A stretch of DNA of 64,000 nt, taken from the NCBI RefSeq assembly GCF_045037415.1, contig NZ_CP173438.1. One strand, written 5' to 3'. This stretch comes from Escherichia coli. GTDB taxonomy: Bacteria; Pseudomonadota; Gammaproteobacteria; Enterobacterales; Enterobacteriaceae. Shown here piece by piece: positions 5,419-8,840 of the stretch. Each line of letters begins with the position of its first letter. Positions within the stretch are counted from its first letter, which is position 1. The notes below the pieces were generated by a model. The model searched no databases. It was not told where the DNA came from and was given only the letters and a program-made list of their open reading frames with translations. Position numbers and translations under genes: made by a program.

Positions 5419-5656
5419 TTATTGTTTTATTACCAAACGGCAATCTAATCTAATCAGATTGAAAGATTTAAAAGTGTTATTTTGATCGCAAAATGAAAGA
5501 TAAATATTTTATTTTGAAAGTTTGTATAAAGAAGGTAGTGAGGAGAATGAGTTGAGTTATGTAAAGTCCGTATCGGGCAGTGACTACCGCTTCCTTGTGC
5601 GGGGCGGGATGCTTTACCATACTTGCCCCTGGTTGAATCTGTTAAATGGACCCCTC

Positions 5657-6742
5657 ATGTTCAAGCGTCGTTATGTAACATTGCTTCCCCTTTTTGTGTT
5701 GCTTGCCGCCTGTAGCAGCAAGCCAAAACCTACTGAGACTGAAACGACCACCGGAACGCCGTCTGGCGGCTTCCTGCTTGAGCCGCAGCACAATGTGATG
5801 CAGATGGGCGGTGACTTCGCCAATAACCCGAATGCCCAGCAGTTCATCGACAAAATGGTGAACAAACACGGTTTCGATCGTCAGCAGTTGCAGGAAATTC
5901 TCTCCCAGGCGAAACGTCTGGATTCGGTACTGCGGCTGATGGATAACCAGGCACCAACCACATCGGTGAAACCGCCATCAGGTCCGAACGGCGCATGGCT
6001 GCGTTATCGCAAAAAATTTATTACGCCGGACAACGTGCAGAACGGTGTGGTTTTCTGGAATCAGTATGAAGATGCGTTGAATCGCGCGTGGCAGGTGTAT
6101 GGTGTACCGCCGGAAATTATCGTCGGGATTATCGGCGTTGAAACCCGCTGGGGGCGCGTGATGGGGAAAACTCGCATTCTCGATGCGCTGGCAACGCTGT
6201 CATTTAATTACCCTCGCCGCGCGGAATATTTTTCAGGTGAGCTGGAAACCTTCCTGCTGATGGCGCGCGACGAGCAGGACGATCCGCTCAATCTGAAAGG
6301 TTCCTTTGCAGGTGCGATGGGTTACGGTCAGTTTATGCCATCGTCTTACAAACAATATGCGGTGGATTTCAGCGGTGACGGGCATATCAACCTGTGGGAT
6401 CCGGTTGATGCCATCGGTAGTGTAGCGAACTATTTCAAAGCGCACGGCTGGGTGAAAGGCGATCAGGTGGCGGTGATGGCAAACGGTCAGGCGCCAGGCT
6501 TACCGAATGGCTTCAAAACCAGGTACAGCATTTCACAACTTGCCGCAGCTGGACTAACGCCGCAGCAGTCGCTGGGGAATCATCAGCAGGCCAGCTTGCT
6601 GCGTCTGGATGTTGGCACTGGTTACCAGTACTGGTATGGTCTGCCGAACTTCTACACTATTACCCGTTATAACCACAGCACTCATTACGCAATGGCGGTC
6701 TGGCAGTTAGGACAGGCCGTGGCGCTGGCGCGCGTGCAGTAA
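5657..6742 (+). CDS. mltB: Membrane-bound lytic murein transglycosylase B
   Basis: Start placed at MFKRRYVTLLPLFVLLAACSS lipoprotein signal (361 aa); the ORF track's longer 5' extension is probably not translated. Confidence 0.88.
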   Translation: MFKRRYVTLLPLFVLLAACSSKPKPTETETTTGTPSGGFLLEPQHNVMQMGGDFANNPNAQQFIDKMVNKHGFDRQQLQEILSQAKRLDSVLRLMDNQAPTTSVKPPSGPNGAWLRYRKKFITPDNVQNGVVFWNQYEDALNRAWQVYGVPPEIIVGIIGVETRWGRVMGKTRILDALATLSFNYPRRAEYFSGELETFLLMARDEQDDPLNLKGSFAGAMGYGQFMPSSYKQYAVDFSGDGHINLWDPVDAIGSVANYFKAHGWVKGDQVAVMANGQAPGLPNGFKTRYSISQLAAAGLTPQQSLGNHQQASLLRLDVGTGYQYWYGLPNFYTITRYNHSTHYAMAVWQLGQAVALARVQ

Positions 6743-6780
6743 CTATTTGCAAGAGGGAGGTTAAACTTCCCTCTGTTATC

Positions 6781-7020
6781 TTACTGTTTATTCGAATGGC
6801 GTAATTGCTTGATTTTTTTCGACAGCGATATCGCATATCCCAGGCAGACAACGCCTAACGCAGCCTGACCGAAGTCAAAAGGTTCAAGATAGCCAGAAGA
6901 TAAAACTTTACATATCACGGAAATCAGTGCGCTGATGCCGCCAATGATGACCCACATACGCATTTGTGTGGTTTGTTTGAGCACGTTTTGTGGGGTGTTA
7001 TCCGTTTTCTTTATTGCCAT
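6781..7020 (-). CDS. Hypothetical small membrane protein (79 aa, two predicted TM segments)
   Basis: Internal ATG of a longer ORF, preceded by GGGAGAG Shine-Dalgarno 7 nt upstream; hydrophobic segments MWVIIGGISALISVICKVL and AALGVVCLGYAISL; not a gene I recognise. Confidence 0.35.
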   Translation of the reverse strand: MAIKKTDNTPQNVLKQTTQMRMWVIIGGISALISVICKVLSSGYLEPFDFGQAALGVVCLGYAISLSKKIKQLRHSNKQ

Positions 7021-7201
7021 TGCTATTCTCTCCCTGTGAATACATATCAATGTGAACGCGGCATGGTAGCGCTTTTTCTCTACCGACTGGCCGCAACAGT
7101 CTTTTTTCGGAACGCGACTCGTAAAATGAATCGCTCGTCCCCATCTTTTGCGGGAAAGTGCTATCTTGTCCGGCATAAATTTTTGACTGACAGAGGTTGT
7201 G

Positions 7202-7695
7202 ATGACTGAAAGTGAACTGATGCAGTTAAGCGAACAGGTTGGGCTGGCGCTGAAAGCCCGTGGCGCAACCGTAACAACTGCTGAGTCTTGTACCGGCGGT
7301 TGGGTAGCGAAAGTGATTACCGATATTGCCGGCAGTTCCGCCTGGTTTGAACGCGGATTTGTCACCTACAGTAACGAAGCAAAAGCGCAAATGATCGGTG
7401 TACGCGAAGAGACGCTGGCGCAGCATGGCGCGGTGAGCGAACCTGTCGTGGTGGAAATGGCGATAGGCGCACTGAAAGCGGCTCGTGCTGATTACGCCGT
7501 GTCTATTAGTGGTATCGCCGGGCCGGATGGCGGCAGTGAAGAGAAGCCTGTCGGCACCGTCTGGTTTGCTTTTGCCACTGCCCGTGGTGAAGGCATTACC
7601 CGGCGGGAATGCTTCAGCGGTGACCGTGATGCGGTGCGTCGTCAGGCTACTGCGTATGCATTGCAGACCTTGTGGCAACAATTTCTACAAAATAC

Positions 7696-7699
<4 letters not shown>
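7202..7699 (+). CDS. pncC: NMN amidohydrolase (CinA C-terminal domain family)
   Basis: 165 aa; GAGGT SD 5 nt before ATG; position upstream of recA. Confidence 0.9.

Positions 7700-8840
<1,141 letters not shown>

Follow-up and report, generated by a model that had tools for sequence, protein, structure and literature searches.

A predicted two-helix membrane protein gene between mltB and pncC, absent from most Escherichia coli and carried by ST131 on an E. albertii-type patch

MgrB, MgtS, AcrZ and PmrR are small enterobacterial inner-membrane regulators that bind larger membrane proteins, and binding of this kind is a common mode of action for enterobacterial small membrane proteins. Proteins of this type are lineage-restricted, shorter than 100 amino acids and embedded in the membrane, and they are mostly single-pass products of fewer than 50 residues. 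Class II holins of the phage 21 S type have 65-95 amino acids, two transmembrane helices with both termini inside (N-in/C-in) and a basic C-terminal tail, and they are encoded in phage or prophage lysis cassettes, next to an endolysin or spanin gene. Type I toxins (TisB, Hok, Ldr, Ibs and DinQ) are small, hydrophobic and patchily distributed, and some of them lie near SOS genes; they usually have fewer than 60 amino acids and one helix, are often multicopy and are paired with an antisense RNA. The small gene examined in this study, which lies between mltB and pncC, resembles each of these groups in some respects and differs from each in others.

The window (the whole 64,000-nucleotide stretch of Escherichia coli DNA that was analysed) carries the small ORF between mltB (5657..6742, plus strand) and pncC (7202..7699, plus strand), the latter followed by recA and recX. 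The ORF and the elements immediately around it are as follows.

6781..7020, minus strand: coding sequence of a predicted 79-amino-acid, two-helix small membrane protein, with an ATG start and a TAA stop; RefSeq WP_000985460.1, 'hypothetical protein'.
7028..7034, minus strand: Shine-Dalgarno sequence GGGAGAG, read from the sequence, with a 7-nt spacer (AATAGCA) to the ATG.
6752..6774, strand not given: GC-rich hairpin with a 10-bp stem, between the convergent stops of mltB and the small ORF.
7021..7201, no strand: divergent intergenic region common to the small ORF and pncC, its pncC-proximal ~100 nt conserved across genera and its ORF-proximal ~90 nt not.

The product encoded at 6781..7020 is MAIKKTDNTPQNVLKQTTQMRMWVIIGGISALISVICKVLSSGYLEPFDFGQAALGVVCLGYAISLSKKIKQLRHSNKQ. 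A sequence-only reading that preceded this study had described a 79-codon minus-strand ORF with an ATG start and a GGGAGAG Shine-Dalgarno sequence, and all of these were located as listed, with a spacer of 7 nt. The same reading had placed the end of the ORF in the hairpin after the mltB stop; the hairpin is present, but the ORF stops 6 nt outside the stem and is thus adjacent to it. The 58-nt stretch containing the hairpin folds at -16.8 kcal/mol (z = -2.6), and folding is seen on both strands (z = -2.6 and -3.0), the minus strand lacking a U-run. The hairpin, which is kept in K-12, is likely to be the mltB terminator and possibly also provides a 3'-end structure for the small gene.

At 43%, the GC content of the ORF is lower than that of the window (51%) and of the neighbouring genes (54-56%). 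Its frame is open further upstream as well, which explains why older annotations give versions of 126 and 131 amino acids. Such a longer upstream start was considered and rejected, because other alleles have 1-nt indels that break the extension, which also overlaps the pncC promoter. Every orthologue aligns from the same methionine as the ATG at 7020, and a purine-rich GAGA(G/A) core in the Shine-Dalgarno region is kept in Escherichia, Salmonella and Citrobacter despite the surrounding ~90 nt being unalignable between these genera.

The length of the ORF alone is unremarkable, because complete ATG-initiated ORFs of at least 79 codons occurred in 10.6% of dinucleotide shuffles of the 459-nt mltB-pncC spacer; it is the comparative evidence that raises the ORF above chance. 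Among eight Escherichia alleles, compared over all 79 codons, the variable sites at the first, second and third codon positions number 11/3/29, and when the comparison is limited to six alleles and the first 69 codons the 40 variable sites split 10/3/27 (chi-square p = 1.1e-5). Within Escherichia, dN/dS in the ORF frame ranges from 0.05 to 0.29 (Nei-Gojobori), the exception being one near-identical pair with four differences (0.94), whereas in the two other frames it mostly lies between 1 and 6. Values of 0.07-0.39 were obtained within Citrobacter and between Salmonella and Citrobacter. Protein identity between genera is ~50%, compared with an unalignable stretch of ~90 nt directly upstream of the start, and 18 residues are invariant between genera (L14, K15, Q16, Q19, R21, G27, G28, S41, G43, D49, Q52, L55, G56, C59, L60, Y62, S67 and K69). 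In addition, the 82-amino-acid E. coli allele differs by a 9-nt insertion that is in frame, at least 546 ST131-type genomes share an identical frame, and all of the genomes listed are annotated with an intact coding sequence. Conservation and dN/dS had been named by the sequence-only reading among the checks to make, and the outcome (dN/dS of 0.05-0.39 and a frame kept across Escherichia, Salmonella and Citrobacter) bears out its proposal of a small membrane protein gene, with purifying selection, frame conservation, synteny in three genera and the two-helix hydrophobic architecture all in agreement. On this comparative evidence, 6781..7020 is a genuine protein-coding gene under purifying selection.

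One part of the frame is less stable than the rest.

6813..6819, minus strand: run of seven A (A7), a frameshift-prone tract in codons 68-70 (KKI) whose length differs between alleles.

E. marmotae and Escherichia sp. E1130 have an eighth A (A8); there, the last ten residues are replaced and the C-terminal tail is shorter (proteins of 74 and 77 amino acids). In the 82-amino-acid E. coli allele the run is interrupted (AAGAAAA). Several database variants are frameshifted or diverge precisely at this run. The C-terminal tail may therefore be less constrained than the rest of the protein, or the run may act as a hot spot of slippage with an effect on the tail only.

The gene prediction itself is not new. 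The sequence-only reading had taken the ORF to be unannotated, but RefSeq already lists a 'hypothetical protein' at these coordinates. In strain SK1144, PGAP annotates a 240-nt coding sequence, WP_000985460.1, at the equivalent position (locus L001, 1682-1921, corresponding to 6781-7020 of the window) that is 100% identical to the window, and in strain CT01 it annotates a 240-nt coding sequence for a 93% allele, WP_000201679.1, at the corresponding position. These were the two RefSeq records opened for exact coordinates; all of the carrier genomes listed have a 'hypothetical protein' coding sequence under the match. An exact-sequence look-up found the identical protein on at least 1000 contigs of public collections (UniProt A0A066SUV2). 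That the sequence-only reading took the site to have no annotated gene is explained by the deletion of the gene from K-12, the strain on which that reading was probably based.

The distribution of the gene in E. coli was examined by megablast of window positions 6600-7300 against 5,426 complete genomes. The flanks were matched in 5,423 of these, while the full stretch was found in 573, so that the segment with the small gene is missing from ~89% of complete E. coli genomes. A three-way alignment delimits the missing segment.

6776..7089, no strand: ~314-bp segment absent from K-12, comprising the whole coding sequence, the Shine-Dalgarno sequence and ~65 nt upstream.

In K-12 MG1655, the mltB hairpin runs straight into the upstream region of pncC, and the junction lies within a CTG microhomology (window 6773-6775 and 7087-7089). 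For O157:H7, Nissle 1917, IAI1 and ATCC 8739, the deletion was deduced from a two-piece match pattern like that of K-12. Among the 573 carriers, 546 have alleles at least 99% identical to the window, 3 are at 95-99% and 24 at 90-95%; the window allele is that of strains labelled O25:H4 or O25b:H4-ST131. Each carrier genome has the segment once. A mobile element was also considered and was ruled out by this single copy per carrier together with the synteny across genera. Clearly the gene can be dispensed with, and its loss or frameshifting is frequent, as seen in the K-12 deletion, the A8 tail of E. marmotae and the frameshifted Salmonella copies.

Orthologous DNA was examined from E. marmotae, three cryptic-clade Escherichia, E. 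whittamii, E. albertii and further E. coli alleles, and beyond Escherichia from Salmonella enterica, five Citrobacter genomes and one further enterobacterium. An initial protein search returned Escherichia members only, a profile search of 1.84 billion representative proteins gave ten matches at E <= 1e-3, and a second profile search gave 54 clusters. A scan of the genome collection returned seven species representatives only, a number that gives no basis for absence elsewhere. Within Escherichia, members are found in a subset of E. coli and in E. fergusonii, E. albertii, E. marmotae, E. whittamii and the cryptic clades. Salmonella enterica members come from subspecies enterica, salamae and indica and from many serovars, some of the copies being frameshifted; several species of Citrobacter and a few other Enterobacterales also carry family members. 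All of the Escherichia, Salmonella and Citrobacter contigs examined have the gene pointing away from pncC-recA-recX and towards mltB, and a membership check at the syntenic loci found srlA, mltB, pncC and recA as neighbours and no phage genes. In one enterobacterial relative (locus L014), a znuABC-like operon is inserted between the gene and mltB, and the gene is still beside pncC. More distant members (E ~1e-3) lie at other sites, for example beside another unannotated small ORF in Affinibrenneria salicis. It was also observed that the srl (glucitol PTS) operon beside mltB is missing from E. albertii and some cryptic-clade Escherichia (loci L007, L008, L019 and L026), where mltB instead adjoins a SIS-domain gene and a sigma-54 activator gene.

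Searches for described relatives gave little. The best Pfam match, IncE, reached 13.6 bits, below the cut-off of 27; NCBIfam had no match to the family, a PDB profile search returned nothing at E values up to 10, and PADLOC returned nothing below E = 0.019. A literature search found no paper on mltB and pncC together with "small protein", nor one mentioning WP_000985460.1, and an ORF at mltB/ygaD is not among the entries of the supplements to two Salmonella small-protein surveys (PMC10117436, PMC5345727). As judged from these comparisons, the protein defines a small, unnamed orthologous family without described relatives.

That Salmonella and Citrobacter both carry the gene at this position indicates that its absence in E. 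coli is the derived state, and the sequence around the window's copy bears on how that copy was acquired.

6150..7300, no strand: E. albertii-type recombinant patch of ~1.15 kb, extending from the 3' half of mltB through the small gene and the intergenic region into pncC, of which it covers the first ~100 nt.

In 100-nt windows, the patch (~6150-7300) is 98-100% identical to E. albertii NBRC 107761, except for two windows at ~6600-6750 with 95%, and is 83-95% identical to K-12 where K-12 has sequence. Conversely, the flanks (~5550-6150 and ~7450-8800) are 97-100% identical to K-12, and their identity to the same E. albertii strain is mostly 87-99%, with 100% attained in conserved stretches of recA. 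At the left edge, the rise in E. albertii identity coincides with the divergence from K-12, as a single import from E. albertii into E. coli predicts. Five other genomes carry the albertii protein allele (T9P relative to the window protein) within flanks that are 98.5-100% identical to the E. albertii type strain, which indicates that this allele is at home in E. albertii. These patterns point to a recombinational import that would have restored a lost gene. In this scenario, the gene would be ancestral at the mltB-pncC site, which Salmonella and Citrobacter share; a deletion of ~314 bp would have removed it on the branch that gave rise to K-12 and most other E. coli; and in the ancestor of ST131 it would have been restored by homologous replacement of ~1.15 kb from E. 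albertii, which would also have altered the C-terminal half of MltB and the promoter region of pncC. The minority E. coli alleles (the CT01 type and the 82-amino-acid type) are each more similar to alleles from other species of Escherichia, which suggests further independent imports or retained polymorphism. Separately, a genome-wide association study of E. coli bloodstream infection lists one associated unitig in mltB, with an allele frequency of 0.105 (PMC10395866, Table S6); this frequency is close to the 10.6% of complete genomes with the albertii-type patch.

The control region between the small ORF and pncC is 181 nt long. A consensus scan found no sigma-70-like promoter for the small ORF on the minus strand, inspection by eye of the DNA upstream of it revealed neither a LexA box (CTGT-N8-ACAG) nor a CRP site, and no perfect marbox was found anywhere in the window. 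A plus-strand terminator-like hairpin at 6952-6971 is weak and folds no better than shuffles (z = -0.6). Known RNAs at 6500-7400 were considered and set aside, the Rfam scan giving chance-level matches only (hya, E = 0.95; DicF, E = 0.54). On the plus strand upstream of pncC, 7118-7167 contains blocks that are invariant from Escherichia to Citrobacter and one further enterobacterium. Of these, TGCTATCTT (7159-7167) resembles an extended -10 element, while CTCGTAAAAT (7118-7127) and CCCCATCT (7139-7146), spaced by ~14 nt, resemble the sigma-32 -35/-10 consensus. K-12 retains the first conserved block upstream of pncC and has the last replaced by ACACCATCT.

Two observations touch on oxidative stress. 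A ChIP-seq study of SoxS in S. Typhimurium lists a site containing the marbox GCACAAACTGAAACA as intergenic 'ygaD' (PMC10268841), and a 15-mer identical to this marbox lies at codons 10-15 of the Salmonella enterica orthologue (locus L018, 3030-3044). The intergenic listing suggests that the ORF is unannotated in the reference genome used there. In addition, a remote family member (E ~1e-3; locus L016, 4001-4252) on an enterobacterial contig follows sodA at a distance of 94 nt, in the same orientation, and adjoins an Hcp gene. Together with the SoxS site, this sodA-adjacent member offers a thin hint of a link to oxidative stress.

The residue pattern of the product is that of a membrane hairpin. 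The sequence-only reading had proposed two hydrophobic helices, and the Kyte-Doolittle profile (15-residue window) agrees with it, with segments at residues ~22-40 (means up to 2.4) and ~50-67 (up to 1.9). Lysine and arginine outnumber aspartate and glutamate by 4 to 1 at the N-terminus and by 5 to 0 in the C-terminal tail, while the connecting loop has 0 against 2; given these basic termini and the acidic loop, the positive-inside rule predicts an N-in/C-in hairpin. AlphaFold2, run on an alignment of 42 sequences, places helices at residues 9-42 and 47-78 with a 4-residue turn, at moderate confidence (pLDDT 65, pTM 0.32); the hydrophobic core of the second helix is short (~15-16 residues). 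Conserved small-residue motifs occur in both helices (IIGG in helix 1, with G27-G28, and LGxxCLGY in helix 2, with G56, C59 and G61), the Salmonella and Citrobacter orthologues have additional glycines in the helices, and the loop, S-x-G-Y-x-E-P-x-D-x-G-Q, is the best-conserved part of the protein. The product would thus be an inner-membrane helical hairpin whose two basic termini face the cytoplasm, with the short acidic loop on the periplasmic side. The conserved helix motifs and loop, taken as residue patterns only, led us to propose tight helix-helix packing as the most likely mode of action, through which the protein might self-associate or might bind and modulate a larger membrane protein.

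Considered as a whole, the evidence is best explained by a genuine gene for a hairpin membrane protein of ~79 residues, ancestral at this site, deleted in most E. coli and re-imported, that acts through helix packing, and we regard this account as probable. Translation of the protein and its insertion into the membrane are, as far as can be judged from sequence, very probable. That it works by binding a larger partner is a tentative proposal with somewhat less than an even chance of being correct; the constant neighbour of the gene is pncC only, which codes for a cytoplasmic enzyme.

There are several alternative explanations for a gene of this kind. The one that survives best, although we consider it unlikely, is a holin-like or toxic pore-forming protein, in which an N-in/C-in two-helix protein oligomerises into membrane lesions, proximity to mltB is meaningful and loss of the gene reflects toxicity. 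The size of the protein, its two hydrophobic helices and its charged C-terminal tail follow the outline of a class II holin, and the patchy distribution and repeated loss of the gene would fit such a role. The E. whittamii orthologue has one automatic UniRef name, 'Holin', and a weak match over residues 13-78 was obtained in PHROG to phrog_1129 'holin' (E = 0.003); however, only 2 of 15 family members match phrog_1129, at E ~1e-3, as is typical of compositional likeness between hydrophobic proteins, and Pfam holin families gave no match. A tblastn search of 50,697 phage records likewise returned nothing but two unannotated records of ~1.9 kb with Salmonella chromosomal fragments. The chromosomal position of the gene is stable across three genera with no phage genes near, and in the relative with the znuABC-like insertion (L014) the gene stays with pncC and not with mltB. 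Moreover, MltB is an exported lipoprotein and needs no holin. As for the two phage records (OR845620.1 and OR845594.1, 'Escherichia phage ECO95 1-6-1'), their ends are 100% identical to the Salmonella orthologue, and the fragments are probably host-chromosome contamination or transduced DNA and not phage genes.

Still less probable is a non-functional sequence, either a chance ORF or an unexpressed relic carried passively on the imported E. albertii DNA. It is true that chance readily yields ORFs of this length (10.6% of shuffles), that no recognisable promoter was found, that 89% of E. coli do without the gene and that its GC content is low (43%). However, the codon-position pattern and the low dN/dS across three genera exclude a chance ORF, and the frame is intact in at least 546 ST131-type genomes with the Shine-Dalgarno sequence and start conserved. 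A role at the level of RNA or transcription, by convergent transcription into the mltB terminator or by promoter competition with pncC and with the peptide incidental, would suit the shared 181-nt control region and the hairpin shared with mltB, but it is highly improbable given that selection acts on the amino-acid sequence (third-position variation, low dN/dS) and that K-12 manages without the segment yet keeps the pncC promoter block and the hairpin.

Returning to the imported hairpin-protein gene, what this study adds is that a 'hypothetical protein' is under purifying selection and belongs to a two-helix family spanning Escherichia, Salmonella and Citrobacter. Knowledge centred on K-12 misses the gene because of the ~314-bp deletion. 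Within E. coli, the gene is a near-marker of ST131, with 546 of the 573 carriers having the ST131-type allele, and it reached ST131 on the ~1.15-kb E. albertii-type patch. It is conceivable, though quite improbable, that ST131 regained a lost membrane protein that aids envelope or stress physiology and extra-intestinal fitness, or that the linked albertii-type half of MltB and pncC promoter do so. Should the protein prove to have a phenotype, ST131, a clinically dominant clone, would have a small protein specific to its lineage; otherwise the protein would count as one more dispensable small membrane protein.

Compared to the described systems, the small protein is similar in predicted form to class II holins, with its 79 residues, two helices, N-in/C-in topology and basic C-terminal tail; however, its gene lies outside any lysis cassette and has conserved chromosomal synteny. 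Like the type I toxins, the protein is small, hydrophobic and patchy in distribution, but at 79 amino acids, with two helices and a single gene copy, it differs from their usual form, and neither a plus-strand promoter-like site inside or beside the ORF nor an Rfam family was found for an antisense antitoxin. No sequence similarity was detected to MgrB, MgtS, AcrZ or PmrR, and a two-helix protein differs from their mostly single-pass form; the small protein is nevertheless like them in having fewer than 100 residues, a predicted location in the membrane and a restriction to particular lineages. The closest counterpart is the WP_000985460.1 group, which has identical sequence and coordinates and the same position between pncC and mltB, and which is the same gene, with no differences.
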